Source: a virus (lineage: Duplodnaviria > Heunggongvirae > Uroviricota > Caudoviricetes). Taken from it: a stretch of DNA of 35,461 nt. Below the pieces are notes generated by a model. The model did not search any database, was not told where the DNA came from, and saw nothing but the letters and a program-made list of their open reading frames with translations. The position numbers and the translations under genes were made by a program. Where the stretch lies: the IMG/VR virus record IMGVR_UViG_2778261527_000008; one strand, written 5' to 3'. Shown here piece after piece: positions 2,515 to 28,900 of the stretch. Within the stretch, counting starts at the first letter, position 1; the number at the start of each line of letters is the position of its first letter.

Positions 2515-2688
2515 ATGGATCTTTTTGTCTACTTTGCTACTCTGCTGTTTTTGACTATCGTCGCTGGCATTAAATTGATTTTTATATCGCTGGTGGTGTT
2601 TTTCAAATTTCTAATCGGTACGCCTTACGGCTGGGTATGCTTCTTTTTGTTTATTCTTTTTAGTTGCTGTAAAAAGGATACTAAATAA
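2515..2688 (+). CDS. small membrane protein (57 aa, two predicted TM helices)
   Basis: ATG at 2515 with AGAGGA RBS; MDLFVYFATLLFLTIVAGIKLIFISLVVFFKFLIGTPYGWVCFFLFILFSCCKKDTK. Confidence 0.3.
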   Translation: MDLFVYFATLLFLTIVAGIKLIFISLVVFFKFLIGTPYGWVCFFLFILFSCCKKDTK

Positions 2689-2846
2689 TAGTGTAATCTG
2701 CCTTTTCTCCTTATGGTTATTAACAGGGGATCTTCTTTGAGGATTCCCGATTAAAAGCCATAAAACACACTCCAGTACAGTGTTTTCATAGTCAGTGATC
2801 TATACAACACAAAAACATAACAAGTATAGATTGAGTATTAATCCTC

Positions 2847-2872
2847 CCGCCCCTTCGGGGCGGTTATTTTTC
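2847..2872 (+). terminator. rho-independent terminator (UUCG tetraloop hairpin + U tract)
   Basis: ccgcccc-ttcg-ggggcgg followed by ttattttt. Confidence 0.6.
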
Positions 2873-2948
2873 TGGCTTTAAAGAATAATGTAGCATTATG
2901 TTCATTATAACCTCATCTTTGTTGTGCAAACCTAACCTAAACTTACTA

Positions 2949-2974
2949 GGGACTCTTCGGAGTCCCTTTTTTTT
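2949..2974 (+). terminator. rho-independent terminator (second, tandem)
   Basis: gggactc-ttcg-gagtccc followed by 8 T. Confidence 0.6.
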
Positions 2975-3215
2975 ATGCAACAATTCGAAGTGTAAGTTTC
3001 TTATGTTGTGTAGGTTTAGTTTCATTTCGCCACTCAGGGAATACATGATCCATCATAACCGCATTAGTCTCATCAATCAGCTTTAAGGACTTTCTCAACG
3101 CCTTATTATCAGCTTTAAGAGTTTTAATCTCTGATTCCATCGCTACCATTCTTTCTTTCATTTTGGTAATTTCTAACATCAGATTACCCAGAAATTCTTT
3201 GTTTTGATTCATCAT
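2973..3215 (-). CDS. hypothetical coiled-coil protein (80 aa)
   Basis: ORF with GAGGGG RBS; heptad-like KxL periodicity; no recognisable catalytic motif. Confidence 0.4.
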   Translation of the reverse strand: MMNQNKEFLGNLMLEITKMKERMVAMESEIKTLKADNKALRKSLKLIDETNAVMMDHVFPEWRNETKPTQHKKLTLRIVA

Positions 3216-3230
3216 AGATTCACCCCTCTA

Positions 3231-4232
3231 TTAAGCTGCGTATGCGTAGGCGCTGTAGTTGGTGTCGTAGATAGCGTCATGCAGTGCCATCTGTGCTTCG
3301 CGGATCTCGTCTTCGTTTACTTCAATCTCTTCTTGTTCTTCTTCGGTATCTTCCCAAGTGGTTTTGAATTTAGCCATAAAGTTATTGCGCAGGGATTCAA
3401 AGTTAGTAACAGGTGCGGATTTTTCTTCAACCGGAACTACTACCGGATCAGCTTCTTTCTGTTCTTCCTGTTCTACTTTTTCACCATTACCCCAGCGATA
3501 GTTAAGGAGTTCTTCCAGTTCTTCATCAATGGATTTTTCTTCAACTGCTTCAACTTCAACCGCTGCTACTTCGAAAGTGGTTTCCTGTGCTGCCAGTTCA
3601 GCTTTCAGAGATGCGTTTTCAGCTTCCAGTTCAGCAATGCGTGCTTTCAGTGCTTCAACTTCGGAAGATTCAACCACTGCAACTTCTTCTTTAACTTCTT
3701 CAACTACTACCGGAGCAACTTCTTTCTGTGCTTCTTTTTTGCAGAAGAAGGAGGAAGTAACCTGTAATGCGTGGTTGTAGAAGGAACCGCCTTTAGCGGT
3801 GTTAACAGTACCAGAAACATCCTTTACAGTGGATTCGGTAGCAACAGTACGGAAGCGTTTTGCGACTTCCTGGGTCTCTACGCCGTATTCGTTACGCTTG
3901 CTCTTGTGATGCATTACAGCACGGAAGCCGGAAGCAGTTTTAACAACAGCCAGATAGTAAGTTTCATCGGCTTTAACAGCACGAGCGAAGCAATAAACGG
4001 ATTCACCTTCTACCAGTGTAGGTTTAACGTGACGTTTGTCGAAACGGTTAGTGATCTGCCATTCAGCACCGTCTTTGATGCCAGCATTCTGACGCATTTC
4101 GGTCAGAGTCTTACCGGATACTACTTCAAAGGATTTGTCTTGTTTGCTTGCTTTACCTTCCATGACGGTAATGTTCAGTTTGCCGTTGGATTTAATAAAC
4201 AGGTTGAAGGTGATGCGCTTAGAATTTTTCAT
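3231..4232 (-). CDS. hypothetical protein: basic N-terminal domain, coiled coil, strongly acidic C-terminal tail
   Basis: 333-aa ORF with GGAG RBS; EVEALKARIAELEAENASLKAELAAQ coiled coil; Glu-rich tail; family not recognised. Confidence 0.5.
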   Translation of the reverse strand: MKNSKRITFNLFIKSNGKLNITVMEGKASKQDKSFEVVSGKTLTEMRQNAGIKDGAEWQITNRFDKRHVKPTLVEGESVYCFARAVKADETYYLAVVKTASGFRAVMHHKSKRNEYGVETQEVAKRFRTVATESTVKDVSGTVNTAKGGSFYNHALQVTSSFFCKKEAQKEVAPVVVEEVKEEVAVVESSEVEALKARIAELEAENASLKAELAAQETTFEVAAVEVEAVEEKSIDEELEELLNYRWGNGEKVEQEEQKEADPVVVPVEEKSAPVTNFESLRNNFMAKFKTTWEDTEEEQEEIEVNEDEIREAQMALHDAIYDTNYSAYAYAA

Positions 4233-4349
4233 TTATAAATACTCCTGAATGCTGTGTTAGTTTTAATTGTTCATATCAAAAGCCTCCTTGCGCCAACAGG
4301 GAGGCTTTTTTATTTTTAAAGCCATCATATAATTCTCAGTGAAAGGTTA

Positions 4350-4532
4350 TTACCAGACCTCGGCGGTAATCTTTACTTTAATGTCATACTTCTTTAAGAG
4401 TTTGTGGAAGGTTGATTGATCAATACCTTCACCTTTAAACCATTCACCCATCACTACATCAGGTGTCAGTTCAAAATAACGCTTTGCCATTTCTAAAACG
4501 ATTTCACGAGTGAACTTAACAGGTCGTGCCAT
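4350..4532 (-). CDS. small hypothetical protein (60 aa), possible DNA-binding regulator
   Basis: ATG preceded by AGGAGG RBS; first gene leftward of the noncoding control region. Confidence 0.4.
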   Translation of the reverse strand: MARPVKFTREIVLEMAKRYFELTPDVVMGEWFKGEGIDQSTFHKLLKKYDIKVKITAEVW

Positions 4533-4874
4533 CTTATATCCTCCTAAATCTGGAATAATGATTTCTTAAAAAAGAGCTTTTCGCTCTGAACAATTCTATT
4601 TATAAAATGTTTTTCGAAAAACCCTGTAAAACCACTGTATATCCGATCAGTGGGAGCACGAATTGCTAAAGAGAAGATTAATAATTAATCAATTCGTACA
4701 TTATTCAATCGAATAAGCACTGTATGTTTAGCCAGTTCTGTATGAATTAACAGTGAGTCAGGGGATTTTCAGAAGTGAACAATCATTTCATGCATGTATT
4801 TATACACGAAAAAATCTTGCGTATCATCAATATGGGGATTGTTTCGAAAATTTCAACCCCTACCAACGAGAAAA

Positions 4875-4903
4875 AGCATAAAATAATCCTTGACAGTTGT
4901 CAA
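4875..4903 (-). promoter_or_regulatory. candidate sigma70 promoter reading leftward, embedded in palindrome TTGACA-gt-TGTCAA
   Basis: on minus strand -35 TTGACA (4903..4898), 17-nt spacer, -10 TATGCT (4880..4875); the palindrome could also be an operator. Confidence 0.3.
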
Positions 4904-5100
4904 TACACTTGATCTAAGCGAGAGATGACTATCAAAATTTTTGTGTGAAAATGGCGGATAACGATTATCAACCTTTATAACCTATTATAGCACGGCGACC
5001 TTTTGATAATTCTTTTTAAATCATGCATTTACGGCGATTTTTGGTGATTTTCTGGTTAAATAATATACAAGAATTTTCTATCAAAATTTTTGATGAAAAA

Positions 5101-5220
5101 CCTACACTACAAACCTACGCTTTAAAGGGATTGGCCTACACTACACTAGCCAGTAAACCTACACTATAACACCCTCAAACCTACACTATGAAACCTACAC
5201 ACCTACACTAACCCTACACT
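5101..5220. repeat. iteron-like direct repeat array, core CCTACACT (6 perfect + 2 variant copies)
   Basis: copies at 5101, 5114(var), 5135, 5158, 5180, 5194(var), 5202, 5213; three successive spacings of 21-23 bp; often preceded by AAA. Confidence 0.6.
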
Positions 5221-5408
5221 TCAATCTCATAAGTGTATGATATTGAAAGACATTTCACCCCACAGACCATAGAATATAAAATTCGAACTAACGTTCTCCT
5301 TTTTGCTCGTTTTCTCTCACTACGTTCAAGAAAGATCTCGCAAAAAGAATACGGCGTAGCCGTGCGCGAAGCGCCCATCAACACCTTCTAAGACCTGCAA
5401 GCAGGATT

Positions 5409-5561
5409 CGAAAGGGATTGGATAGTTCGCTTCGCTCACGTTCACGCCTACGGCGTTCACTCGCTTTTGAAAGGATTTTCTTAGAAAGGGATTTAATACT
5501 AGTTACTAACTGATTCTAGTAAACGAACGAAGTGAGTAACAATCACTTTCTAGAAAGGTAT
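5409..5561. repeat. second direct-repeat family GAAAGG(G)ATT (4 copies)
   Basis: copies at 5409, 5468, 5483, 5552 inside a GC-richer structured segment. Confidence 0.4.
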
Positions 5562-5799
5562 TGGTTATCCCTTCGGGATTGCAACCTTCGGTTGCTAAAT
5601 TGCTTCCTGATTATTATTTCTCCAAAAGAAAGATTCTTATATTCTAAAGATACTTCTTCGTTTTGATGATGATTTAATCAAACCATGAAGGAGGGCTTTA
5701 GCCCGACTGAATACAATCACCTTTCATAATAACAAGAATTTTCTCTTTATAAATAATAGTGAACTTACTTGATTCACTTTCTTTTAGAGGATTTCCACT

Positions 5800-6267
5800 A
5801 TGAACCATAAAATGACTACCACTACTCCTTTTATCCTTCTGGGTCTGGATTCTGATAGCTTCCACAATGACAAGTTAATGAAGATGTTCCGTGAACGTGG
5901 TTATAACATCCTTTTCAACTCTGATGAATCCCATTTCTCTAGTGCATGGTATGCGTTTTACCGTAATAAGAAGCCGACCATTGTAGTTAACTGCTTCACC
6001 GATGAAGAACGCTTAAAGTACCAGGATCTACCAGCAATTATTGTCCGTGATGATCTGCCGTTTCAAGTCCGTTCCGGTGACATTGATCTGGGTAGCTTCG
6101 TTACTGTCTATGAACTGGATGAAGCAATGTTTAACTACGGCAAAGAAACCGCTCAGGAAGCCCCAGAAGAAGATGAACAAGACGAAGATGACGACGACTA
6201 CGCACCAATCTGTTTTTCTTCTCAGAATGGCTTCTACGGTTACGACGAAGGCTTAGATATGCTGTAA
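5800..6267 (+). CDS. hypothetical protein with strongly acidic C-terminal tail (EEDEQDEDDDDY)
   Basis: 155-aa ORF, AGAGGA RBS, E. coli-like codon usage; first rightward gene after the control region. Confidence 0.5.
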   Translation: MNHKMTTTTPFILLGLDSDSFHNDKLMKMFRERGYNILFNSDESHFSSAWYAFYRNKKPTIVVNCFTDEERLKYQDLPAIIVRDDLPFQVRSGDIDLGSFVTVYELDEAMFNYGKETAQEAPEEDEQDEDDDDYAPICFSSQNGFYGYDEGLDML

Positions 6268-6302
6268 GTTAGGTCAACCCTTTGGCGTCTTGTCAAGGGG
6301 TA

Positions 6303-6331
6303 TTGACAAAAATTTCTGACTTTTTTATGAT
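6303..6331 (+). promoter_or_regulatory. candidate sigma70 promoter
   Basis: -35 TTGACA 6303-6308, 17-nt spacer, -10 TATGAT 6326-6331; upstream inverted TGTCAA at 6291-6296. Confidence 0.35.
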
Positions 6332-6389
6332 TGTCGCACTTGACAACTTTAAACCTATTTGACCTAGATTTGTAAATGGGGTGTTAATT

Positions 6390-6536
6390 ATGAACACTAC
6401 TAAGAAAATTGATGGACGTAAAACCCCGAACCGCAAACCGTGGACCCCAAACCTGAATTTCTCAATGGTTGACTTCCATGAACGCCAGCGTCGCATTCAA
6501 GAAGAAATTGATCGCGCGATTGCTGAATCTAAATGA
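6390..6536 (+). CDS. small basic protein (48 aa)
   Basis: ATG at 6390 with GGGG RBS; MNTTKKIDGRKTPNRKPWTPNLNF...; below ORF-track cutoff. Confidence 0.35.
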   Translation: MNTTKKIDGRKTPNRKPWTPNLNFSMVDFHERQRRIQEEIDRAIAESK

Positions 6537-6633
6537 GATAAAAACTTCTTATAAATAAAATTGTTCCGGTGATGCTGCCGGAACTAGGAGGATCAATATC
6601 ATTATCGCAAAACCGTTTAAGGGGAATTTAATT

Positions 6634-7440
6634 ATGAATACTGTTACTGCTATGAATACTACTAAAACCGCTTCCGTGTCTCTGGTTGTTGATAACACCA
6701 AACCGCTGACCATGTCTTCTCGTCAGATCGCTGAATTTACCGGAAAGAAACACTTTCACGTAAAACGCGACATTCGCGAAATGCTGATTACCTTAGAATT
6801 AGATGAATCCAAATTTGGATGCATCTTTTTTGATCAATATGGACGCGAGCAAACAGAATATCACTTGAATGAAGAACTGACTCTGACTCTTGTCACTGGT
6901 TACAATATCCAGATGCGAAACGCGGTTATTCAGGAATGGAAGCGACTGAAAGAAGAAAATGAAAAACTTCGCTCTACTCCGGTTAACCCGTATGCAGACT
7001 TTGAAGAAACCGACTGGATCGAACTGGCGTTAAAGAAAACTCGCGAGAACAAGCAACTGATTACTCTACATCATCGCAAATCCGTAGATAGCCATTCAAT
7101 GACGCGTTTGTTAGGTGCTAAAAAGGGCGCTACGAAGGTTAAAGAAGCACTGACGGCCTTACGTACTGCCGGATACATTGAGCGCGTCTATGATGAAAAT
7201 AACAAGCCGTGTGGGTATGTTGCTAATGATTCCGCGATACCGTTTTGCAGCATGAACGCTCACTATCAACTTTCTTTCACTGTTGATGTGCTTCCGGTGC
7301 TGGTTGAATTGGGTGTTCTTGAAGAAGAACAAAAAGCAGCTTTGACACTGCCTAAACCGAATAACACGATCATGATTCAGAATAAAGCGACTATCATGAT
7401 TCGTCAGAATGTTGGATCGCTAGAACACTTCGGACTGTAA
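6634..7440 (+). CDS. phage regulatory protein, Rha-family antirepressor-like
   Basis: 268 aa; N-terminal SSRQIAEFTGKKHFHVKRDIREML typical of Rha/ORF6N DNA-binding domain; AAGGGG RBS. Confidence 0.55.
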   Translation: MNTVTAMNTTKTASVSLVVDNTKPLTMSSRQIAEFTGKKHFHVKRDIREMLITLELDESKFGCIFFDQYGREQTEYHLNEELTLTLVTGYNIQMRNAVIQEWKRLKEENEKLRSTPVNPYADFEETDWIELALKKTRENKQLITLHHRKSVDSHSMTRLLGAKKGATKVKEALTALRTAGYIERVYDENNKPCGYVANDSAIPFCSMNAHYQLSFTVDVLPVLVELGVLEEEQKAALTLPKPNNTIMIQNKATIMIRQNVGSLEHFGL

Positions 7441-7448
7441 TAATTTTT

Positions 7449-7473
7449 GCCCCTGAATTTCAGGGGCTTTTTT
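7449..7473 (+). terminator. rho-independent terminator
   Basis: gcccctgaa-t-ttcaggggc perfect inverted repeat followed by tttttt. Confidence 0.6.
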
Positions 7474-7522
7474 GTATCTGTAGGTATAAAAAAAGCCAAC
7501 CCCGAAGGATTGGCCTAGAGAA

Positions 7523-7753
7523 TCAAATTCCTGTTGCTTCTACCATTTCACCATCAACCTGAACAAAGAATTTCAAATCAACTTTATGAAGGGATTTGTA
7601 TAGCTGGGCTATGGATAAGCCATGCTCATTTAATACCCGCTCTTTGTTCTCTTTACCTTTCGGTGCTTGATAGTACGCTTTTACAATCGCTGCCAGTTGT
7701 TCACGATTAAAACGGGCAGGGCGACCGCGAGTAGCTTTAGTAGTCATAGTCAT
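7523..7753 (-). CDS. small putative DNA-binding protein with AT-hook-like RGRP motif (76 aa from internal ATG)
   Basis: ORF track starts at a GTG; the ATG at 7753..7751 has a GGAG RBS; MTMTTKATRGRPARF... Confidence 0.4.
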   Translation of the reverse strand: MTMTTKATRGRPARFNREQLAAIVKAYYQAPKGKENKERVLNEHGLSIAQLYKSLHKVDLKFFVQVDGEMVEATGI

Positions 7754-7782
7754 TTTCTCCAAATTAAAGTGAATGTTCACCT

Positions 7783-8388
7783 TTATTTAGAGGACTTACA
7801 TTTTATCGGAAAAAGTTCTCCATCGTCAACCGACATAAAGAACTCTGCCTTAATCCCGTACTTCTTCAACCGTGAATAATATGTACCCCGACTAATATCA
7901 ACCTTGCGCAGCACTTCGAAGAACTCTTTAGGATTCCTGTAATAGTGGCTATATCGCACGTTAGCGAGTTCTACAAACAATTCCCTTGTATCACCATAGC
8001 CTTTCTTGAAAGCCACGTTACGATAGCGTGTAATGGCATGATTCAATCTCTTCTGTTTAAGCACTTCCCTGATCGGCTTCCACTGCAACCGATAGATAGG
8101 ACCGTCATCAATGCGATAATAACGCTTGATATCAAAATCAAACCAATCTCGGACTCTCCGAAACTCTGTATGTGATGTTCTATGCTTCTTAAAGAAGTTG
8201 TGAACGTCTCTATAGCCATTATCACGGTAAAATTCTATTAAAATCTCTTTCGCTTCCTCACGGCTAAACCCAGATGTTGTGTAATCGGTCTTTAAGTGCT
8301 TATGTTTTACTGGCAAACGATATTCATGATCGGTACAACAAGACAAGGCTAATTCTACTTCATCTCTTTGTTGCTGATTAATTAGCAT
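7783..8388 (-). CDS. hypothetical basic protein with C-terminal HTH-like segment
   Basis: 201-aa ORF; Arg/Lys/Tyr-rich; ISRGTYYSRLKKYGI resembles an HTH recognition helix. Confidence 0.45.
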   Translation of the reverse strand: MLINQQQRDEVELALSCCTDHEYRLPVKHKHLKTDYTTSGFSREEAKEILIEFYRDNGYRDVHNFFKKHRTSHTEFRRVRDWFDFDIKRYYRIDDGPIYRLQWKPIREVLKQKRLNHAITRYRNVAFKKGYGDTRELFVELANVRYSHYYRNPKEFFEVLRKVDISRGTYYSRLKKYGIKAEFFMSVDDGELFPIKCKSSK

Positions 8389-8474
8389 ACACCCTCCTTA
8401 AATCTTAATACCGTATTTATCAAAATATAAACAATTTAATAAATACCTTCATATTTCGTAATGAGGGTAATTAC

Positions 8475-10382
8475 ATGAAACTGATTTCTAATAAGGCAAA
8501 ATTAAAAAAGATTCTCAGAAATGCAGCCAAATATATTACGCCACCGCCTAAACTCCTTCCATCGGAATGGTGCGAAGCGAATCTAACGCTAGTCGATGGT
8601 CCTCGTGCTGGGGATAAAGTTAAATTGCTGTCATTTCAGAAAGGCATGATTGATGCTCCTTTCCTTGAGAAGAAAAAGAAGTACGTTTTTTGTACGAGTG
8701 CGCAGATCGGAAAGACGACCATCATGTCAGGGATCATGTTTAACCAGATGGCAAACGATCCGTGTAATATCATTATCGGGCAAAGTACCGCTAAAGAAGT
8801 GGCTATGTACTTGAATACTAAGATCCGTCCTTCTATTGAAGCATGTCCGGCATTACAGGAAGTGGTAACAGATAAGAATGATCGTAATGCGGTAAACAAC
8901 AATAACCAGATTCAGCTAAAAACAAACCATTTCCTTTACATGGTTTCTTTGACCAGTCCTTCAAGTTTGCGCGGGCGTACTGCCAAGTTAGGGATTGTAG
9001 ACGAATGCGACGCAGCAACAATCACCGAAGAAGGTTGCCCGGTGGCACTAACTGCAAACCGTTTAACTACCTTTGGTGATGAAGCTCGATTGATTGTTTC
9101 TAGTACCCCGACCAATAAGCTGGGAATCATTAACCAGCAATGGTTATCAAGTGATATGCGTATGTTTTTTGTTCCGTGTCCTCATTGCGGGGAACACCAG
9201 GTGATCGAGTGGGAAAACGTTCAATTTGAATGGCGTAACATTGATGGTAAGAACTTACCCGATCCTGATACCGCTCGTTATATTTGCCCCCACTGTAAGA
9301 ACGCATGGACAGAAGGGGAACGAATCAGGGCAGTAGCGCAAGGCGAGTGGAGAGCAACCCGTGAAAGTGAAGTAGCAGGATTCTGGATCAGTCGTCTGTA
9401 TTCACCTTTCAGCACGATCCGCGCTTGTGTGGTTGATTTTAGTCATGCGTGGCAATCCTTTGATTTACAATCCTTTTTTAACACCGTGTTAGGCAAGGTA
9501 TACGACGATCAGGACACGGCAGTAGAAGCAAATGAACTGGAACAACTCAAAACAGATGTTTCTATCGAGAATATCCCTGATGACGTGATTTTCTTGTGTG
9601 CGGGTACTGACCAGCAATTAGATCGCGCAGAAACTACGATCATGGGCGTGGCAAAGGATAAGATTTATATTCTGGATCACCGCAGCTTTTACGATCATAA
9701 CTGTGAACGATATGAATCACCTGTATGGGATAGATTAATCAACTTCCATAAAACCAAATTTACTACTGTATCGGGTGATCGTGTTCCTATGCTCGCCAGC
9801 TTCCTTGATACATCGAACGGTCGATTCACTCAAGCTGGATACCGTATTTGCGGCAAGTGGAAGAACTTACACGCTATCAAAGGTAGTTCTGCTGGTAACG
9901 CTCCGATCATTCCGGTTAAACCTACCCGCACAGGTGGTCATGAATTGCTTATGCTGGGCGTTAACGTTGGGAAATCCGCTGTTCGTGAAATGCTGGTTAG
10001 AAACCTGAAAGATAATCCTCATATTGGCTTAGAAATATCAGAAACCATTCCTGATGATTATCTCGATCAGCTTTTGAGTGAATCCATCAAGCGTACTACT
10101 ACTGGCGTGCGTTGGGTGAAAAATCCAGGTAGTACCCGAAACGAGGCTCTCGACTGTCTGGTTTATAGCTATGCTGCTTCTCGCTACGTTCTTTCAAAAA
10201 TGTCATGGGATAAACTCATTGCAATGAAAGACAGCTTAAACCGTGTTGTCGAAGAATCCGTAGAAGCTCCTAAATCGCAATCTGACGAGCAAATCGAAGA
10301 AAATAAGCCAATCACACGACCACAACGTAAAAACATCGCCAGACGCCCAAATAGAGGCCGTAGCTGGGTAACATCGTTCTAA
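8475..10382 (+). CDS. terminase large subunit, lambda GpA family
   Basis: 635 aa, size and motifs (zinc-finger-like CPHCG...CPHC segment) consistent with GpA-type terminases; GAGGG RBS. Confidence 0.8.
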
Positions 10383-10454
10383 TAACTCGCCGTCCTTCGG
10401 GGCGGCTTACTCCTAAATATTGTTAATCCAATAACAATTAAATAAGGGGTAATT

Positions 10455-10949
10455 ATGAGTTTAGAACTAATTCCCTTAGTAATTCGTAAAGGTGAAAAAA
10501 TCACGCTGGCGAATGAAGAGGGTGTAACAATTCAGGTAGGAAATAGTAAAGGTATCATTTATCAGGTTGATGATACTCCGGCTAATCATGAGATTAAAAC
10601 CTTAGATTTTGCCGAAGGTAAATATACCATCGTAACCACTTTGGAAGAAGAACTGGTATCAATGCAGGAATTAACTGTTTTACCAGTATTCGCCAAACAA
10701 TCCAAAAAAGAATATCTGCGGGAAACTATCGCCTTAATCGAGCAAGTTATTTTCGCCCGTTTATCTGGGGACGAAGCCGCATTATCTCAAATGACAGTGA
10801 AAGGGAATACTTTCGCCTATGAGTCATTAGGTGTTCTCCAGCAATTAAAGACTGATTATGAACGTCAGTTATCAAAATTAATTCAAGCCGAACGACGTAA
10901 ACAGGGAATTAGCCCGATTAAAAATATTAAAGTACGTCTTACGCGATAA
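10455..10949 (+). CDS. gpW-like head-tail joining protein with extra N-terminal domain
   Basis: position between terL and portal as for lambda W; C-terminal half shows gpW-like spacing of hydrophobic/Gly residues; 164 aa vs 68 aa for lambda gpW. Confidence 0.35.
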   Translation: MSLELIPLVIRKGEKITLANEEGVTIQVGNSKGIIYQVDDTPANHEIKTLDFAEGKYTIVTTLEEELVSMQELTVLPVFAKQSKKEYLRETIALIEQVIFARLSGDEAALSQMTVKGNTFAYESLGVLQQLKTDYERQLSKLIQAERRKQGISPIKNIKVRLTR

Positions 10950-10959
10950 GGGGTAAATC

Positions 10960-12471
10960 ATGTTTAATCTTTTTCGACGCAAAAAGGCGGTAGAAACTCC
11001 AGTTAAAACTAATCACCGCCAACAACAACCAAAAATTTTCATCGACAAACAAGTAGAAAAATTTCAGAAAGATTTGTCTAAGCGTTCTTTGGGCTTAGTC
11101 GGTGATCGAATTGATGGGCAGCTTCAACAAGATACTATCACCGGAACGTTCAATAAGGCTCTCAAATCGAACGGTAAGCGCCTTTATGATCAGGGTCGTA
11201 CTCTGGCCTTAAACACTTCCGTAGGCAGTCGATACACGCAATACATCACCGATATGGTGGTAGGTACTGGCCTAGATCCGAAGCCGTCAATCGTTAAATC
11301 AAATGGCAAACTTGATAGCGCACTGAATAAGCAGATCGAGAATGCTTTCTGGAAGTGGGCGCAGAATGCTAAACGCTTCTCTCGTAACGGTCGCTTTAAC
11401 TTCCGTGAATTGCTGGTAATGGCTGAACGTGAGCGCGTTATGGGTGGTGAGTGTTTCATCGTTTTAACTAAAGAAAACAATGAGTTAAATGTTTCTATCC
11501 TGTCTGCTGATAAGTGCGACTGGACTCTCAACCGTGAAGTGAGCAAAGAACGTGCGATATATCAAGGTGTGGAGTATGCCGTAGAAACGATGAAGCCCGT
11601 GGCATACTGGTTTCGTAAAGTCAACCTACTGACTCAGACCTACACTGGTGATAACTATCGCGTCGATGCTTCGCAAGTATGCCATTATTATCAACCGCTT
11701 ACCGCCGAATCCCTGCGTGGTGTGACTGACTTCCTGCCAGTGATTAAGGATATCGCACATCAAGATGCATTCCGCGAAACTGCGATCATCCAGAAACGCA
11801 TTGCAGCTAGCTCTATGGGCTTTATCGAACGTCCGAAAGATTCTGGTGACGATTTTGATACTGGTGAAGAGGATGAACAATATCAAGCGCCGGAAGTAGT
11901 ACAGGACTTTGCACCGGGTACTATTCAGGAATTGCCGGAAGGGGCAACGATTAAGTCAATTCAGAGCGCCCAAAGTGGCGATGACTTTAACAGCTTCAAT
12001 GATGCGATGTTTACTAGCGTATCAATGGGCTTAGGCGTGTTTAAACAGGGCTTAACTGGTGATACCAGCCAGATCAACTACAGCGCAGCCCGCTACGGCG
12101 AATTGCTTCAACGCACACGAGTTAAAGCACTGCAAAACAAATTAATTGAAACAGTGGTATTGCCAATTTTTGAAGCATATCTACGCCATTATTCCGCGCG
12201 TGGTATTGTTCCGATTCGTATTACTGCAATTCCGCATATTATCGACAACACTACTATTATTCGTCCGCGTTTTGAATCCGTCGATCCTATTAAAGACGTA
12301 AACGCTGATATTGCTTTAATTGATAAAGGACTTAAATCACGTACTGCCGTTATATTAGAACGTGGTGATGATCCTGAAAAAGTATTCTCAGAGATTCAAG
12401 CCGAAAAGAGCGCACTAAATATTATCGTTGATGGTGAGGGTGAAGAAAAAAATTCCCCAGCCGATCCCTAA
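10960..12471 (+). CDS. portal protein (lambda gpB-like)
   Basis: 503 aa, immediately downstream of terL, acidic C-terminus; synteny. Confidence 0.75.
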   Translation: MFNLFRRKKAVETPVKTNHRQQQPKIFIDKQVEKFQKDLSKRSLGLVGDRIDGQLQQDTITGTFNKALKSNGKRLYDQGRTLALNTSVGSRYTQYITDMVVGTGLDPKPSIVKSNGKLDSALNKQIENAFWKWAQNAKRFSRNGRFNFRELLVMAERERVMGGECFIVLTKENNELNVSILSADKCDWTLNREVSKERAIYQGVEYAVETMKPVAYWFRKVNLLTQTYTGDNYRVDASQVCHYYQPLTAESLRGVTDFLPVIKDIAHQDAFRETAIIQKRIAASSMGFIERPKDSGDDFDTGEEDEQYQAPEVVQDFAPGTIQELPEGATIKSIQSAQSGDDFNSFNDAMFTSVSMGLGVFKQGLTGDTSQINYSAARYGELLQRTRVKALQNKLIETVVLPIFEAYLRHYSARGIVPIRITAIPHIIDNTTIIRPRFESVDPIKDVNADIALIDKGLKSRTAVILERGDDPEKVFSEIQAEKSALNIIVDGEGEEKNSPADP

Positions 12472-12516
12472 TAACCAACGGGGGCGCAATGCCCCCAATT
12501 AATTAAAGGTGATTAA

Positions 12517-14523
12517 ATGCTTAAATTTCGCCGCGATCTTAACGGTTACGGTGGAGTTATTAATGAAGGGCATAACGATCAATACGAATTTGAAATTGCT
12601 TTCTCAAGTACACAGCCTTATCAGCGCCAATTTTGGGATGAGCAAAATCAAGAAATGGTGGTATTAGATGAAATTCTGGTACATACACCGGAAGCGGTTG
12701 ATCTGTCTCGTCTGAATAATAACGCTCCGTTGCTGTTCAATCACAATTTCGATAATCACATTGGTGTAGTTTGTAACGCTCGAATCGATGCGGATAACGT
12801 AGGTCGTGCTCTGGTTAAGTTCTCCAAGCATGGGACTTTGGCTAATGATATTCGTAATAAAGTCATTGAAGGTACGATGGAAAAAATTTCTGTCGGCTAT
12901 GACATTAAAGAATATCACATCGATTATGCCAAAGGACAATTGATTGTTACTAAGTGGGCACCCTATGAACTCTCATTTGTCACCGTTCCCGCAGACGATA
13001 CGGTCGGTTTAAATCGCTCTCTAAATACTATCACAGTTAATTTGGAGGCTAAACGCGATATGACTAAAGAACAAATTGAAGAAATCAAAGAAGAACAAGA
13101 ATCCGCTCAGGTTGAAGAAACTCCGGTAGAAGAAAATAAAGAATCGGAAGTAGAAGAAACTCAAGAGCGCCAAGTTGAAGAGAATAAAGAAGATGAAAAT
13201 CTCGAAGACGGAAAAGACGCTGAACATCCTGAAAGTGTTGATGATGATAGTTCAACTGTTCGGGAAACAGAAGAAGTAAAAGAAGAACGTGAAGCCGCTC
13301 CGGTTGAAGAAGAAAAAATCGAAGAAGTGGCTGAACGTTCCGAAGAAGACGAATTAGAAATTCGCGAAATTGCACGCGAACTAAATATTGATGACGAAGA
13401 ATTGAAACGCGCATTGGCAATTAAAGATATGACGCCGGAAGCATTCCGCACTAAGGCACTAAATAACATTACCAATGCTCAACGTATTAACGAACAACAA
13501 ATTAAGGACTCTAAAATGGAAAAAACTTTTGACCTGAACAACGTAATTCGCTCTCTGGTAGATGGTGAAGCTCTGGGTGCTAACGAAGCCGAGTTTTCTG
13601 CAATGGCTGCTACTACAACTATGCAGCGTGGTCGTGCCGCTCGTGGTGGCTCTGTATTCGTTCCGGCTGCTGCTATGCGTGCTGCTGCTGATGGCAACAC
13701 CAAAGCTAATCTGGTTGCTATCACTGACGAAAAACTGATGACTGAATCCTACATCGAAATGCTGATGCCTCAGAGTGTTTTAGGCCGCCTCGGGGTGACT
13801 GTTTATAGTGGCTTGACTTCTCCGACCGCTATTCCAAAAATGACTAAATCCAGCGTTGACGCTTTCGGATTCGTTGACGAAAATGGCGCTGCCCCCGAGT
13901 CACATGCGGAATTTTCGAACGTGAAACTGTCTCCGAAAACTTTTGCTGGTGGCAACCCGATCAGCCGTCAGTCGCTGAAAACCGTTCCGGGCATCGCTAC
14001 CCTGATCACCGATCACATTAACAAATCTGTTCGGATCAAACTGGAACAACTGATTCTGTCTGATAAAGAAAATGCTCGTGGTCCGGCTGGTCTGGTTAAG
14101 CAACTGGTAGACGCTAGCCGCGTTACCAAGAAAGCTGCTTTCTCTTATAAAGACTTCCTGAAAGAAATTGCAGCACTGACTGACGCTGGCGTTCCTGCTC
14201 AGGCGATCAAGTTTGCGATGAGCGGTGCAACTGCTGCTGAACTGGAATCTACCCTGAAAGATAACGGCGTTTCCGGTTATATCATCGAAAACGGCAAACT
14301 GGCTGGTTACGAAGTAGTTACTTCTGGCGTTATTCCGGCAGACCACATCGTTCTGGGTGACTTCTCCGGTATTACTATCGGTGAGTGGGGCGGTCTGGAA
14401 CTGGATATGGATCTAACTACATACCGTGATCGTGGTGCGGTAGTGCCTCGTATCTTTGTAGATTTGGACTACGTTGTAGCACAGCCGGAAGCTCTGAAAG
14501 TTCTTCACATCTCCGCTGAATGA
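12517..14523 (+). CDS. prohead protease (HK97 gp4/S78-like) - acidic scaffold-like linker - major capsid protein (HK97 fold) fusion
   Basis: N-terminal ~170 aa with protease-like SVGY/ELSFVTVPA motifs; ~110-aa Glu-rich linker; C-terminal ~340 aa capsid-like; single uninterrupted ORF. Confidence 0.7.
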   Translation: MLKFRRDLNGYGGVINEGHNDQYEFEIAFSSTQPYQRQFWDEQNQEMVVLDEILVHTPEAVDLSRLNNNAPLLFNHNFDNHIGVVCNARIDADNVGRALVKFSKHGTLANDIRNKVIEGTMEKISVGYDIKEYHIDYAKGQLIVTKWAPYELSFVTVPADDTVGLNRSLNTITVNLEAKRDMTKEQIEEIKEEQESAQVEETPVEENKESEVEETQERQVEENKEDENLEDGKDAEHPESVDDDSSTVRETEEVKEEREAAPVEEEKIEEVAERSEEDELEIREIARELNIDDEELKRALAIKDMTPEAFRTKALNNITNAQRINEQQIKDSKMEKTFDLNNVIRSLVDGEALGANEAEFSAMAATTTMQRGRAARGGSVFVPAAAMRAAADGNTKANLVAITDEKLMTESYIEMLMPQSVLGRLGVTVYSGLTSPTAIPKMTKSSVDAFGFVDENGAAPESHAEFSNVKLSPKTFAGGNPISRQSLKTVPGIATLITDHINKSVRIKLEQLILSDKENARGPAGLVKQLVDASRVTKKAAFSYKDFLKEIAALTDAGVPAQAIKFAMSGATAAELESTLKDNGVSGYIIENGKLAGYEVVTSGVIPADHIVLGDFSGITIGEWGGLELDMDLTTYRDRGAVVPRIFVDLDYVVAQPEALKVLHISAE

Positions 14524-14649
14524 ACTCCTGTAGAACCATCTGAACCTTCCCCCGATTTGGGGGAAGAAAATCTGATTCCTGAACCGGAAGAAGAATCCCA
14601 GACGGTTAAGGCGAAAGCCACAGCTAAAAAACAGCGTAAAACTAAAGAA
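14524..14649 (+). other. in-frame post-UGA extension of the capsid ORF (42 codons), candidate readthrough isoform
   Basis: no stop in frame from 14524 to TAA TAA at 14650-14655; no start codon or RBS; encodes TPVEPSEPSPDLGEENLIPEPEEESQTVKAKATAKKQRKTKE. Confidence 0.4.
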
Positions 14650-14657
14650 TAATAATT

Positions 14658-14684
14658 AGCCCTGCCTAACGGTGGGGCTTTTTT
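14658..14684 (+). terminator. rho-independent terminator after capsid gene
   Basis: agccctgcc-taac-ggtggggct followed by tttttt. Confidence 0.6.
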
Positions 14685-14714
14685 GTATGTAAATACTCCA
14701 TAAAGGGGGTAACT

Positions 14715-15005
14715 ATGTTCAAATTATCAGAATCACAATTAAATCGAATGTTTAAAAGTGCTCCTGTATTTTCGGTGGAAGGTGGTAAATCAATTCGTGC
14801 TTATCATGAAATTACTACTACCGACGAATCGGGGGTAATGACAGAAACAGAATTTCTATTCTGTCGTGAGGGAGACTTAAAGCAAGGTGATATTGTCACA
14901 GTAGAAAACCAGCGTTTCAAAGTTCAATACGTTAAGCGCAATGGTGACAATACTTGTGATTGCTTTATCACTTTAGCAGGGGGTACACATGCTCGCTACC
15001 GTTAA
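14715..15005 (+). CDS. head-tail adaptor / head completion protein (candidate)
   Basis: 96-aa ORF directly after capsid gene, AGGGGG RBS; synteny only. Confidence 0.4.
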   Translation: MFKLSESQLNRMFKSAPVFSVEGGKSIRAYHEITTTDESGVMTETEFLFCREGDLKQGDIVTVENQRFKVQYVKRNGDNTCDCFITLAGGTHARYR

Positions 15006-15411
15006 TAATATGCCGAGACTGAAAATCAAACGCGCCTTGCAAGATATTATCGAACAAGATTTAGGTCTGGCTTTAAACGTAGAACAAACTCAGCAAGGCT
15101 TTAGTGATGACGTGGTTTGTTGGATTACTGGCATGAATGAGACTTACACAAGGGTCCGTGGCGGTAATGCAATGCAAGCTGAATGCGTTATCGAAATGCA
15201 GTTATATTCTCAGATTCATGAAACGAAAATTCATGAGGGTATTTGCCAGATAATCCAGATTCAGCCAGATAACCCACGATTTAAAGATTTGGGCTTCTCT
15301 ATTTCAGATATCACTCCAGTAGCTTCTAATACCGATTATGACGATGATTCTAGTGATGGGGGTATCGTTGGGACACTTAGCCTTAAATTTTCTTATCTAG
15401 CGCGTTTTTAA
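14989..15411 (+). CDS. head-tail joining or tail completion protein (candidate)
   Basis: 140-aa ORF overlapping previous stop by 17 nt; synteny only. Confidence 0.35.
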   Translation: MLATVNNMPRLKIKRALQDIIEQDLGLALNVEQTQQGFSDDVVCWITGMNETYTRVRGGNAMQAECVIEMQLYSQIHETKIHEGICQIIQIQPDNPRFKDLGFSISDITPVASNTDYDDDSSDGGIVGTLSLKFSYLARF

Positions 15412-15420
15412 GGGGTAATA

Positions 15421-16254
15421 ATGAATATTACACAAGATAACTTAGATATTTTTACGGGGTCGCATGTTGAAGTCTCCGTTTCTACTATGGTCGATAGCCA
15501 GCCGGACTTTTTCGATCCTAGTTTTAGTTCTATTGAGAACGTCGCAGCATTCCCTACGCTAACCGAATCCACAGAGATTGAAACTCTGGAAGAGTACGAT
15601 CAGGACGCTACGGGGAAACTTGCTGGTTATCGTAGACTGGAACCGACAACACTCACATTAAACCGTGTTCTTGACGATGAACATCAAGCAATGTTGATGA
15701 AAGCGGTAGGGGATAAAACACCTTTACGCTTCCGTATGTTCTATGTTGTGAACTCTGGCTATAGTGCTGCTAACACTGGTTACTATGTCATCTATGACGC
15801 TTATGTCACTAGTCACAAAACCCGTGGCGCAGATAACAAAGCTGTAACACTGGAATTTAAACTTGAACCAGATGGCGGGATTTTGGCAAGGGGGATTGCT
15901 ACCGAAGGCCGGATCTTACGTCAGGGTGATTTTGGTTTGGGTGCTGGTGTAAATCCATTCACGGGTCCGATTGACAGCGAGGCATTAGCCGGAAACCGTT
16001 TCGTAACTTACAAGGGAACTGCTAGCGGTAATCCATATTCAACCGACACAGCATTAATTCACCTTCAAGCTAATGAGCATGGCGCATGGCAATTAACCTG
16101 TAATACTTCTGGCGCACCACGTTTACGCGTCCGAAATATTCAGGAAAACGGTCGCTCTGAATGGATCAAGGTATATTCCACCAATGAGAAACCGACACCT
16201 AGCGAAATTGGCGCAGTAGCTAAAACTGATAGAGTCGATTTCGGGGAGTATTGA
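15421..16254 (+). CDS. putative tail-tube-fold protein with C-terminal fiber-like segment (candidate side-fiber anchor/collar)
   Basis: 277 aa; N-terminal half has tube-protein-like pattern; C-terminal KPTPSEIGA motif shared with the downstream fiber. Confidence 0.35.
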   Translation: MNITQDNLDIFTGSHVEVSVSTMVDSQPDFFDPSFSSIENVAAFPTLTESTEIETLEEYDQDATGKLAGYRRLEPTTLTLNRVLDDEHQAMLMKAVGDKTPLRFRMFYVVNSGYSAANTGYYVIYDAYVTSHKTRGADNKAVTLEFKLEPDGGILARGIATEGRILRQGDFGLGAGVNPFTGPIDSEALAGNRFVTYKGTASGNPYSTDTALIHLQANEHGAWQLTCNTSGAPRLRVRNIQENGRSEWIKVYSTNEKPTPSEIGAVAKTDRVDFGEY

Positions 16255-16331
16255 TTCACTTCCTAAATAAAACATGAACGTTGGGAGGTTAACGCCTCCC
16301 TTATTCCTGTTTTATAGTGAGGTGATTCTAG

Positions 16332-25544: not shown

Positions 25545-25964
25545 ATGCTAAAAACTAGGCTTATCACCGATTACATCAATTCTTTAATAGGTCAGGAGTT
25601 CGTTCAGGGTGAGAATGATTGCAATCTCATTGCATGTAAGATCATCGATATTCTCGCTGGTACTGACCTATATAATTCTCTTTATAAAAAATATTCAACT
25701 AAAGAAGAAGGCTTGAAAATCTGCAAAGAATTAAGCGGGTATTCAAATATCCTTCAACCAATTAAGAAACATTTCAAATTAGTCACTGATGATTTACAGG
25801 ACGGCGACTTACTGGTCACAGCCCACAAATTAGGAAACCGTAATTATTATTCCGTAGTTCCTCATTATTCCGGTTATGGCCTCGTTGAAGAAGATGGTAT
25901 CTGGATGACCATTCCTGTTTCAGACATTGACTATGAACAAGTTTATAGATTCGGGGGTGAATAA
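25545..25964 (+). CDS. tail tip protein with NlpC/P60-like Cys/His motif (gpK C-terminal-like)
   Basis: ATG at 25545 with GGAGG RBS; GENDCNLIA and downstream His; 139 aa. Confidence 0.35.
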   Translation: MLKTRLITDYINSLIGQEFVQGENDCNLIACKIIDILAGTDLYNSLYKKYSTKEEGLKICKELSGYSNILQPIKKHFKLVTDDLQDGDLLVTAHKLGNRNYYSVVPHYSGYGLVEEDGIWMTIPVSDIDYEQVYRFGGE

Positions 25965-28900
25965 TGGGATTTGAAATATTAGTAGGCGCGGTTATTGCTG
26001 GTGCGTCTGCTGGGATGGCTGCTGCTGCAACATTTTCTGTTATGACCGCAGTCGCTATCGGTATGGCTGCTGGTGCAATGACCTTGATCGCTTCCACTGT
26101 AGGCGCACCAAAAACACCGAAAGTACAAAGCCCAGATAATGCGGTGACACTAGGAACATCAAACGATCCGAAGACAGTATTACCCGTTCTTTTCGGTACT
26201 ACCCGCACGGGTGCAATCTGCGTTTACAAGGCAATTTCTAAGCAAGAAAACAATAAGTTAGTGCAAATCTTCGCTATTGCCGAGGGTGAAATCGACCATT
26301 ACAAAGCACTCTTTATTGATAATAAAAATGTTCTTGTTGGTAAGAACATGACGATCCGTGATGGTATTCTCGATAAGGGCAACATTAAAGAAGAATATCG
26401 TAAAGTATTAGAAGTCGAGTTCCGCACGGGCAAGAATCCTAACACCGCTTTGTCGCTGGCAAAACGTCACTTAGGGTCAGACTGGAACGACAACTACAAA
26501 GGCAATGGTATTGCAACCATGTGTATTGTGTTACGTCGTGATGACAAATCTCTTGCTGCTGGTGTTGATATTCTCCAGCCTAATAGCCAGGTGGCAGTAG
26601 ACGTTTGCGGGTTAAAGATTCGTAACCTTGAAACCAATGCTATTGAGGCTAGCACTAACGGCGTGGACCAGATTTTCCATTATCTGACAAATACAAAATA
26701 TGGTCTTAGTGTACCAATTGAAAACATCAACGTTGATTCATTCCTGAAAGTACGTAAACAAGTACGCCAGATGGACCTACATTCAAACGGTGCATGTGAT
26801 CCGAACGCCAGCTTTAAAGAGAACTTGACCAGTCTTATGCAGACTTTCGGCGGGGTGATGTTCGAATCCTTCGGAAGAATTACCCTGAAACTGGATGCTC
26901 CTGATATTGTTAAGCATACCTTCAATGAAGACAATATTATGATGGGTAAGGTATCACTGAAAACAGGTGGCACTAACGGTTATTTCAATACCATTAACGC
27001 GATGTATCAAGAACCATCAATCGACTATTCAGAACAAATGCTACGTTATCCGGCTGATGCTGAAAACGATGCTACTATTCGTCAAGATGGTCGAATTATC
27101 GCTAAAGATATTGAATATCGTTTTGTTAAGTCTAAAGCCCAGATTGATAAACTTGCGAGTATTGAACGAAATAAATCTCGTATCACTCAGGTTATCAGCT
27201 TTATGACTACTGACGCATTCACTGCCGAAGTTTGGGATGTTATCAGCGTAACCTATGATGAATTGAAACTGAATAATTCCTTATGGCGTATTACTGCAAT
27301 TGATCGCTCGATTGATTCTGGTATTGCTGGGATGATGACTATCACCGCTACAGAATATAATTCTCAGGTTTATACTGACCTGAACTATGCGGCTAACCCA
27401 GATAACCGACCAAGTGGTTTACCGGATTCAATGACAGTACAGAAGCCTACTAATTTCAGAATTAAGGCAACTGGCGAGACGATTTACGGTAAAAACGTTA
27501 CTTTGACATGGGATGCGCCGGAAGATTTTAACCGTTATGGTTTTCAGATTGATTACCGTGTAAGCGGATCACCTAACTGGATTAAGCTGGGACAGACTTC
27601 ACAGCAAATTTTCAGTGTCAATGCACTGGCAAAAGATCGTTCTTATGATTACCGAGTTTGTGCTTTCGGTATCATCGCTCGATCCGATTGGGTAGAACTG
27701 GTTAACCAGAATCCGACTGTTACCTATGAATTGCCGACTCCGGTTATTCGAATCAAAAATCAGGGTAGCACGCCTGGTACTTTCGAAGGCAATGATCTGA
27801 TTATCGAATGGGAAAATCAGCAACAATTAGATGTTGAGATCAACGGTGAAACTAACAAGTTTAGTGACCTGTTTGAAGCATACATTATCAAGGTGACTAA
27901 CAAGGCTGGTAAGTCTATTCAGTACCGTACCCGCGATCCTGAATCATGGACTTATACGCTTGATATGAACCAGTTTAACGGCCTTTCGCGTCAACTGACG
28001 GTAGAAGTATCAGCTAAGGGCTATAACAACTCAGAGAGCGCCCCAGCGCGTTTAGTGGCTATCAACCCACAACATAAGCCAATGAAAGGTTTTAGTGCGC
28101 GTGGTGGCTTTAATACTGCGTTTGTTAGCTGGGCGGATGACGTAGAACATGACTATGCAGGGTCAATCATCCAGTATGCAACCGACAACACTTTCTCAGA
28201 TGCAAGGGCAGTAAGTACGAATAGTGTTAGCCATACTTCCTTTGATATTGCTGACGGTGATTATTATATCCGTGGTGCTCACTACGATATTTTCGGTATG
28301 GATGATGCTGTTTGGTCTGAACCGTATTTCATGCAAATGAAATCTACCATTAGCTGGGACGATCAGGACAAAGAAGCACTGGAAGATCTGATCGGTTTAC
28401 AAGATCGCTTAGATGAAACTATCGCGGATGCTATTAAGCAAGCTGGCGCTAATGCCGATGCTAAAATTGATGCAATGCATAAGCAAATCACTACCGAGAC
28501 GGGTAAAACTGTTCAAGCCTCAGCCGATACCTTAAAGAGTCTGATTGCTTCTGGTGATAAGGCAAGTTCAACTAAGATTGATCAGGTTAAAGCTGAACTG
28601 AAAGGCGATATCACCAAAGAAGTTAGCGCCTCCGCTACAACCCTGAAACAAGCTATTGCTACCAGTGAAGCAGCAAGCGCAAGTAAGATTGACCAAGTTC
28701 GGGTAGAAATGGATGGCAAGATTGCTGGTGTGAATCAGGAAGCGGACGTTAAGATCGATGCTTTGAAAGGAACCATTAACAGCAAATACAATCTAGCGGT
28801 TAATGCAGATGGTCGCGTGGCTGGTATTCACATGAGCGCAACTAACGATCCGGCACAACCGACTAAAATCATCTTTACGGCTGATAAAATTGCTGTAGCT

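Follow-up and report, generated by a model that had tools for sequence, protein, structure and literature searches.

Putative UGA readthrough extensions behind the major capsid and tail tube protein genes of an Escherichia coli prophage

Introduction

The 35,461-nt DNA stretch of the IMG/VR record IMGVR_UViG_2778261527_000008 (hereafter, the window) comprises most of a ~35-kb siphovirus-type prophage of E. coli. Within the window, the genes for the major capsid protein (MCP) and for the tail tube protein (TTP) both end in a TGA that is followed by an A, and behind both of them the reading frame stays open until a TAA stop that directly precedes a predicted transcription terminator. The two extensions share a peptide module—an acidic, Pro-rich linker leading into a Lys/Arg-rich tail—and they recur in the same arrangement behind the capsid and tail tube genes of related phages. 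We consider it likely, with a probability of about 0.7, that they are translated by UGA readthrough and give rise to minor extended isoforms of MCP and TTP.

Leaky stop contexts and in-frame extensions

The MCP gene (12517–14523, + strand) encodes a 668-aa fusion of prohead protease, scaffold, and MCP of the HK97 type, as assigned by Pfam (Peptidase_S78, 2.3e-10; Phage_capsid, 1.2e-25) and PHROG (phrog_617, major head protein, 5.6e-93). The TTP gene (19919–20392, + strand) encodes 157 aa and is assigned by Pfam (Phage_TTP_11), PHROG (phrog_158, major tail protein, 1.9e-21), and structure prediction. These are presumably the two most highly expressed genes of the prophage. The 35 genes in the window stop at TAA in 31 cases, at TAG in one, and at TGA in three, and the sequence TGA-A is restricted to MCP (14521–14524, + strand) and TTP (20390–20393, + strand), that is, to 2/35 genes. 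Highly expressed genes of bacteria preferentially end in UAA, and in E. coli a UGA with an A in the +4 position is particularly liable to be misread by tRNA-Trp (PMC5289835); the leakiness of the UGA-A context goes back to Engelberg-Kulka 1981, as cited in PMC5289835.

Behind the MCP stop, in-frame translation yields 42 codons, TPVEPSEPSPDLGEENLIPEPEEESQTVKAKATAKKQRKTKE, closed by TAA (14524–14652, + strand), with a second in-frame TAA at 14653–14655. Behind the TTP stop, it yields 39 codons, TNEELPEPEPQPEHEAVVIPDVEEVTAKATAKRSRKAKD, and a TAA (20393–20512, + strand). The PGAP annotation places nothing in either stretch. Both contain the 19-mer GGCGAAAGCCACAGCTAAA, which encodes (K)AKATAK, at 14610–14628 and 20470–20488. 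It occurs exactly twice on the + strand, and none of 100 dinucleotide-preserving shuffles contained a match, even when two mismatches were allowed. The 21 nt 3' of the 19-mer diverge (aaacagcgtaaaactaaagaa vs cgaagccgcaaggctaaagat), yet translate into KQRKTKE and RSRKAKD in the frame of the respective upstream gene. The resulting basic tails, AKATAKKQRKTKE behind MCP (14611–14649, + strand) and AKATAKRSRKAKD behind TTP (20471–20509, + strand), both carry a net charge of +5. An earlier reading of the sequence without database searches (the sequence-only reading) had described a 19-nt identity between the regions 14608–14684 and 20468–20545, followed by divergent sequence that still encodes basic residues; the identity is exact and not reproduced by chance, and the in-frame translation gives the peptides it named. 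Since both stretches share the frame of the preceding TGA (14521–14523 and 20390–20392), the similarity begins at the stop codon (TGAACT...) and not at the 19-mer. The pairwise comparison that the same reading had called for can indeed be run from the stop codon on, and the similarity of the two 3' ends extends well outside the terminator hairpin.

Both extensions are followed by a predicted intrinsic terminator. Behind MCP, a 9-bp stem with a 4-nt loop (14658–14679) precedes a T run (14680–14684), the whole element spanning 14658–14684 on the + strand with a fold z of −3.5. Behind TTP, a 10-bp stem with a 5-nt loop (20517–20541) and its T run span 20517–20545 on the + strand (fold z −3.2). 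The hairpins read AGCCCTGCC-TAAC-GGTGGGGCT and (A)AGCCCTGCC-TTAAT-GGTGGGGCT(T), and are thus near-identical, as had been stated; they are the top two + strand terminator predictions within the structural region (8000–26000). In both cases, the stem begins ~5 nt past the stop of the extension. The stems stay paired by compensatory variants in the loci L014 and L042 and in Salmonella, so that a GC-rich hairpin with a U run appears to be kept as expected of an intrinsic (Rho-independent) terminator. The capsid gene of phage T7 is likewise followed by a strong terminator (T-phi).

Distribution among relatives

The search for the motif behind capsid and tail genes of related phages, which the sequence-only reading had suggested, retrieves the cassette always in combination with TGA-A and an open frame. 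This holds for 34/34 MCP loci and for 16/16 loci of TTP allele A, whose extensions measure 36–41 codons. Among viral contigs, all 56 motif matches behind MCP (33) or TTP (23) have TGA-A and an open extension, and the eight other matches are unrelated chance matches. Metagenome contigs add 21 matches (13 MCP, 8 TTP), all of the same kind. The total of ~80 occurrences stems from related and recombining sequences and does not represent independent observations.

The arrangement is not bound to one capsid allele. TGA-A and an extension are also found behind an MCP allele of ~37–40% identity (L042, L064, L071, L084, L132, L134, L142, and L146) and behind two Salmonella MCP alleles of 50% and 47% identity (L094 and L097). 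The Salmonella extension, TPVEPSEPLPDNGESETPSVTAKATKRGRKPKE, precedes a terminator of different sequence, and hence, the extension is not simply an appendage of the terminator. The short capsid form of the extension resembles the TTP form. Taken at the sequence level, extension and terminator behave as a portable 3' cassette, which is placed behind capsid genes 37–50% identical and behind one of two TTP alleles.

Every relative without an extension that was examined ends in TAA. This comprises TTP allele B (12 loci, ~59% identical), the Salmonella TTPs, the Salmonella MCPs of L098 and L099—which share the same two MCP alleles as the extension-bearing L094 and L097—and 24 further MCP relatives of 24–52% identity. 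The MCP gene of phage DCP80 (43% identity) also stops at TAA, and its frame is interrupted 3' of this stop, leaving no simple readthrough extension. A profile search of genome contigs with the MCP alignment adds one Methylophilus relative (26%), which ends in TAA and bears no extension.

Two observations on these relatives stand beside this distribution. In DCP80, a stretch coding for a basic peptide lies between the MCP gene and the terminator, outside any frame that is open with MCP. Furthermore, extension-less relatives end in short basic C termini before their TAA: ...AGRSK, ...EARSK, ...GSRK, ...MGRK, ...AARK, ...AKAPASK, and ...AEAKSKA, taken from L098 and L099 (MCP ends), L094 and L098 (TTP ends), L101–L103, and L120. 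AKAPASK resembles the extension motif AKA[TP]AKK, and these MCP and TTP families may share a basic C terminus as a general trait.

Evidence for and against coding

The relatives provide 36 distinct extension peptides of 28–45 residues. Frame 0 has no stop in any of them, even though ~4.3% of random point changes would put one there, and frames +1 and +2 contain 1–7 stops. Seven spacings between TGA and motif occur among the variants—39, 60, 63, 69, 78, 84, and 87 nt—and each of them is divisible by 3. Without coding constraint, the chance of this would be roughly (1/3)^6 for the lengths times ~0.03 for the absent stops, an estimate that serves as a guide only because the sequences are related and recombining. 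This pattern points to a downstream open reading frame (ORF) that is kept open by selection. The linker is acidic and Pro-rich in every variant (net charge −3 to −9, 14–25% Pro), and the tail has a net charge of +5 or +6 across six versions: KQRKTKE, KVGRPPKAK, KERKTKAK, RSRKAKD, RGRKAKN, and RGRKPKE. Changes within a version of the tail are mostly synonymous; KVGRPPKAK is encoded in three ways.

The sequence-only reading had proposed a translated peptide instead of an RNA-only element, and a recoding-plus-termination cassette shared by capsid and tail genes. The comparative data agree with both proposals: the module always lies in frame behind TGA-A, its length changes by whole codons, and TAA takes the place of TGA where the extension is missing; the translation itself we infer. 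At the sequence level, the arrangement is that of programmed readthrough of the Qbeta A1 type.

Several points weigh against translation by readthrough. For the MCP extension, the ratio of nonsynonymous to synonymous changes (dN/dS) amounts to 0.75 (linker: 0.90) vs 0.25 for the gene body, and for the TTP extension to 0.41 vs 0.13 for the gene body. The linker sequence thus appears almost free to vary, which would be expected of a disordered spacer and equally of noncoding DNA; as proof of coding, dN/dS lends weak support. In the tail, frame +1 is for the most part open as well, and it too encodes a basic peptide (net charge +2 to +9). The basic charge is hence partly compositional, frame 0 stands out mainly by its narrow charge range, and charge conservation was downgraded as strong proof of coding after this frame control. 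For the same reasons, the argument that different codons for conserved Lys/Arg residues are a sign of selection on a peptide survives in part only: the codons do differ, and the conclusion drawn from them is weakened by the open, basic frame +1 and by dN/dS values of 0.41–0.75. The 70 nt past the MCP extension (14653–14722, comprising terminator, spacer, and the ribosome-binding site of the next gene) have a nucleotide diversity (pi) of 0.005 across the 34 loci, whereas the MCP genes of these loci reach a synonymous divergence (pS) of 0.27. This junction is also present behind MCP alleles of ~40% identity and looks like a mosaic recombination junction. A cassette and flank so much more conserved than the genes suggest one module that was spread by recombination, which inflates the counts of the previous section. 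The extension is, furthermore, dispensable, as several relatives lack it. A profile search with both extension peptides against 1.84 billion representatives retrieved neither a family nor a homologue in which the extension is fused. UGA termination may be more efficient in natural E. coli isolates than in K-12, and the readthrough could thus be very low. Finally, the case for translation is built from sequence comparison.

The same profile search matched only P0018, a 33-aa ORF call on the MCP extension, and one spurious repeat protein; the extension has no significant Pfam or PHROG match. A second database entry, P0001 (198 aa), reads as TTP, W, and extension, with the W at the position of the stop. 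Its source contig (L093, 842 nt) has TGA at this position, hence P0001 is no evidence for a fusion; as a natural sense-codon fusion it was ruled out, the gene having been called with a genetic code that reads TGA as Trp. Both P0001 and P0018 are annotation artefacts in public protein collections that expose the open frame.

RNA structure

Consensus folding of 47 distinct regions with RNAalifold supports only the terminator hairpin and a 3-bp mini-stem (GGC-GAAA-GCC), and Rfam has no match in the window; an element acting as RNA only was rejected on these grounds. Single-sequence folds predict an 8-bp hairpin in the long form of the MCP extension, CUUCCCCC-GAUUU-GGGGGAAG (14546–14566, + strand), 22 nt past the UGA. 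Its arms are invariant among the E. coli variants, and it is present neither in the short-form MCP extension nor in the TTP extension. The Salmonella version (L094) bears two compensatory pairs, CUCUCCCC/GGGGAGAG, which replace S by L and E by S in the peptide; the pairing was judged from the single-sequence folds, since the MAFFT alignment puts the loop gap of the Salmonella sequence in the wrong place. In the short-form MCP extension, a different hairpin of 11 bp with a GAAA loop lies 10 nt past the UGA (z −5.2), and the folds of the TTP extension contain no significant hairpin. As the hairpins differ in sequence and in spacing (22 nt, 10 nt, or none), there is no stimulatory structure common to the variants and no element resembling a selenocysteine insertion sequence (SECIS). 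A uniform readthrough-stimulating hairpin is thereby ruled out—a further point against programmed readthrough.

Proposed mechanism and function

In the mechanism that we propose, most ribosomes would stop at the UGA, and a small fraction—a few percent or less—would decode UGA-A by near-cognate tRNA-Trp. These ribosomes would go on for 28–45 codons up to a strong TAA, which behind MCP is a TAA-TAA. The product would be a minor isoform extended by 29–46 residues, comprising a disordered acidic, Pro-rich linker and a Lys/Arg tail of 12–16 residues that is made up of AKATAK and an R/K-rich end with a net charge of +5/+6. At 1–7% readthrough, a lambda-like tail with ~192 tube subunits (PMC5009743) would bear ~2–13 extended copies.

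The AlphaFold2 model of TTP with its readthrough extension combines a confidently predicted core (pLDDT 80–93) with an extension that is predicted to be disordered, without secondary structure (pLDDT 36–46). In a Foldseek search, the best matches of the model are structures of lambda gpV (7t4f, 8k36, and 7t2e; E ~3e-7, ~153 aligned columns), according to which TTP has the predicted tube fold of the gpV N-terminal domain. Since the TTP core matches this tube domain, the extension begins where in gpV the linker to the peripheral Ig-like domain begins. The C terminus of TTP is taken to point outward, an assumption based on gpV. In phages T3 and A2, recoding produces C-terminal extensions of HK97-fold capsid proteins that are Ig-like surface domains (PMC5009743). 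From the position of the gpV linker and from these frameshift-made capsid add-ons, we infer by analogy that a few copies of the basic tails would be exposed on the outer surface of both head and tail.

What the tails might do there is a guess, far less secure than the readthrough itself. We prefer a flexible polycationic tether to anionic surfaces such as the cell envelope, lipopolysaccharide, mucus, or DNA. An AT-hook (PF02178) is approached only by the KKVGRPPKAK variant, which scores 14.2 bits (cutoff 17.4; E 0.039), and the other tail variants do not match. A broader proposal would see in these elements a portable leaky-stop display cassette of tailed dsDNA phages—UGA-A, acidic/Pro linker, polycationic tail, strong stop, and terminator—that is moved by recombination and provides flexible cationic tethers for reversible adhesion to the envelope or to gut mucus. 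Its dosage would be set by the activity of host release factor 2, and the ribosome beside the terminator may tune downstream transcription. Taken as a whole, this proposal is speculative and probably does not hold in full.

Alternative explanations

The extensions might not be translated at all. They could belong to an untranslated 3' cassette, a noncoding junction that stabilizes mRNA 3' ends and provides homology at which mosaic recombination can take place. The open frame, the TGA-A, and the basic peptide would then reflect composition and the recent spread of a single module. A cassette and flank far more conserved than the neighboring genes (pi 0.005 vs pS 0.27) would fit such a junction, as would the presence of one cassette behind MCP alleles that are 37–50% identical, the dN/dS near 1 in the MCP linker, and the open, basic frame +1 of the tail. 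Nevertheless, noncoding DNA would not be expected to keep all seven TGA-to-motif distances in multiples of 3, nor to avoid stops in frame 0 of 36 peptides when the other frames have 1–7. It also leaves unexplained why the extension is perfectly tied to TGA-A, and its absence to TAA, in a genome that uses TAA at 31/35 genes, why Salmonella retains TGA-A and extension in front of a different terminator, and why the changes within tail variants are mostly synonymous. We hence regard an untranslated cassette as unlikely. Readthrough could also take place for regulatory reasons, with the peptide being unimportant: ribosomes past the UGA would mask the 5' arm of the terminator stem and couple translation to transcriptional readthrough into the downstream genes. 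The 5-nt spacing from stop to stem is constant behind MCP, behind TTP, and in Salmonella, and amounts to 8–16 nt in extension-less relatives, which favors this idea together with the weak amino acid constraint. It leaves the AKATAK motif unaccounted for, along with the uniform +5/+6 charge of the tail and the acidic, Pro-rich linker, and at a few percent of readthrough only a few percent of transcripts would be affected, given tight coupling of ribosome and RNA polymerase. Such a purely regulatory role is, in our view, quite improbable.

There is little to recommend a decaying remnant, in which the extensions would be left over from longer C-terminal domains that were cut by a nonsense mutation. 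Other members of phrog_158 are longer—TTP matches positions 15–157 of the 376-position profile—and at the corresponding point lambda gpV continues into its C-terminal Ig domain. A remnant would, on the other hand, hardly leave the same TGA-A and a homologous extension on two different genes, or stay free of frame breaks and stops at a pS of 0.15–0.19 and with many indels, and the 28–45 aa are of low complexity without a domain match; we therefore deem decay very unlikely. Other modes of decoding at or behind the UGA are the least probable and reach the margin of what we would consider. Selenocysteine insertion might draw on the 11-bp hairpin that the short-form MCP extension carries 10 nt past its UGA, but the variants have no hairpin in common behind the UGA, let alone a conserved one at a fixed distance as SECIS insertion would need, and Rfam gives no match; the GAAA loop of the short-form hairpin is, moreover, unlike the SECIS of E. 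coli. For a phage-encoded suppressor tRNA, ARAGORN offers no candidate, its sole hit being a 91-nt "tRNA-Glu" antisense inside an ORF. Internal initiation of a small ORF is what the 33-aa database call P0018 would imply with its internal TTG, but neither the short form nor Salmonella (GAT AAT GGG) has this TTG, and the TTG is not preceded by a Shine-Dalgarno sequence, making a start within the extension unlikely.

Comparison with known systems

Translation of the extensions by readthrough would resemble the A1 protein of Qbeta (Fiersviridae), an ssRNA phage that also infects E. coli. In both cases, an in-frame UGA ends the major capsid gene, a minor extended isoform arises—or, in the present prophage, would arise—and the extension contains a Pro-rich linker. 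A1 is produced by UGA-to-Trp readthrough of the coat gene at ~5% (PMC7026636) or 1/15 (PMC8067240), its extension opens with a polyproline linker (PMC8067240), and few copies of the extended coat isoform are incorporated (PMC7026636, PMC8067240). Qbeta is, however, a T=3 phage with an unrelated coat fold, and its extension is a folded domain of ~200 aa that is required for infection. Here, the extension comprises 28–45 residues that are predicted to be disordered, is dispensable in relatives, is present on a tail protein as well, and is known from sequence.

The Listeria phages PSA, A118, and A500 are similar in that their major capsid (cps) and major tail (tsh) genes are both subject to recoding, as is proposed here. 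These phages differ in that their ribosomes slip by +1 or −1 at defined shift sites such as CCC_UGA and thereby enter another frame. As the extension lies in frame 0 directly after the stop, frameshifting is not needed here; programmed frameshifting of the PSA, T7 10B, or SPP1 gp17.1* type was rejected, the extension being in frame 0 and frames +1 and +2 being closed. C-terminal add-ons on an HK97-fold capsid or a tail tube protein are also borne by T7 and T3 (10A/10B), Lactobacillus phage A2, and SPP1 (gp17.1*). The frameshift-made add-ons are minor species (with a ratio of 3:1 for SPP1), dispensable for infectivity, and thought to contact cell surfaces weakly (PMC5009743, PMC8718954). Lambda gpV is similar in its tube domain and in the position of its Ig-domain linker, at which the present extension begins. 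The add-ons of T3, A2, SPP1, and gpV are folded Ig-like or FN3 domains—that of T7 is not—and are generated by frameshifting or by direct fusion, whereas here a short, disordered peptide would follow a leaky stop. An Ig-like or FN3 decoration, which would comprise ~80–100 folded aa, was accordingly discarded for an extension of 28–45 aa with a pLDDT of 36–46 and no significant Pfam or PHROG match.

Among eukaryotic viruses, the coat protein readthrough domain of luteoviruses and poleroviruses is a likeness, as readthrough of the coat stop provides a minor exposed isoform for surface interaction and vector transmission (PMC9553062, PMC7827187). It differs by eukaryotic translation, by the use of another stop codon and of long-range RNA signals, and in that the readthrough domain is large and folded.

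A full-text literature search, of incomplete coverage, turned up no tailed phage for which stop-codon readthrough of a capsid or tail tube gene has been reported. If true, the present case would, as far as we found, be the first programmed stop-codon readthrough described in structural genes of Caudoviricetes. Should the extended isoforms exist, readthrough in viral structural genes would not be confined to RNA phages and eukaryotic viruses, and tailed DNA phages would use it beside frameshifting to make minor capsid and tail tube isoforms. Head and tail genes, and different capsid alleles as well, would then exchange a shared peptide module. Such extensions fall into a blind spot of annotation, as PGAP omits both stretches and the sole "fusion" in the databases is a call with the wrong genetic code. 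The cassette would constitute a natural low-valency display site that a coliphage bears on both its head and its tail, similar to display on Qbeta A1 or T7 10B, and it offers a simple test of the value that low-copy surface add-ons have for a phage.

Prophage setting and further observations

The prophage has no close deposited phage, the top match being a part of phage DCP80 with 43% protein identity. Of 5426 complete E. coli genomes, 54 carry a near-identical prophage, among them CE0007a (NZ_CP119011) and EC416 (NZ_AP027404), and IMG/VR adds 33 contigs of this kind. Upstream of the MCP gene lie a lambda-type large terminase (8475–10382) and a lambda-type portal (10960–12471), and a long fibre gene of 1176 aa (16332–19862) is located between MCP and TTP. 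A tape-measure-like gene and a tail-tip gene are found 3' of TTP.

Directly 3' of the TTP extension and its terminator lies a gene (20561–21067, + strand) with a Gp38 adhesin N-terminal domain (PF21721, 3.5e-15). A Gp38-adhesin-type gene accompanies TTP allele A everywhere; in the loci of TTP allele B and in Salmonella, TTP is directly followed by a 102-aa chaperone-like gene. Two small ORFs of 102 and 113 aa (21110–21789, + strand) are situated 5' of the tape-measure gene, in the position of the G and T genes. The frame of the 113-aa ORF is −1 relative to that of the 102-aa ORF, the overlap amounts to just 16 nt (21403–21418), and a scan of 21301–21420 detected no XXXYYYZ slippery heptamer.

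The third TGA of the window ends a 277-aa ORF (15421–16254, + strand), just 5' of the 1176-aa fibre gene and between the head and tail genes. Its context is TGA-T, followed by just three open codons, and the ORF has its own terminator-like hairpin (16283–16300). The N-terminal half is a paralogue of the tail tube protein (29% identity to TTP; phrog_158, E 4e-8), and the C-terminal part is similar to tail-fibre proteins. The tRNA-Glu(UUC) called by ARAGORN (15176–15266, − strand) lies opposite the ORF 14989–15411; at 91 nt it is unusually long, it is positioned inside a coding region, and it is probably a false positive.

DCP80 itself (L001, PQ671644.1, Escherichia phage DCP80) is filed as a 141-kb genome of the Straboviridae (Tevenvirinae). 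Its positions 1–16786 carry a lambda-type module of terminase, portal, protease–MCP, and tail tube that resembles that of the present prophage, and such a module under a Straboviridae filing suggests a chimeric assembly or an unusual mosaic.

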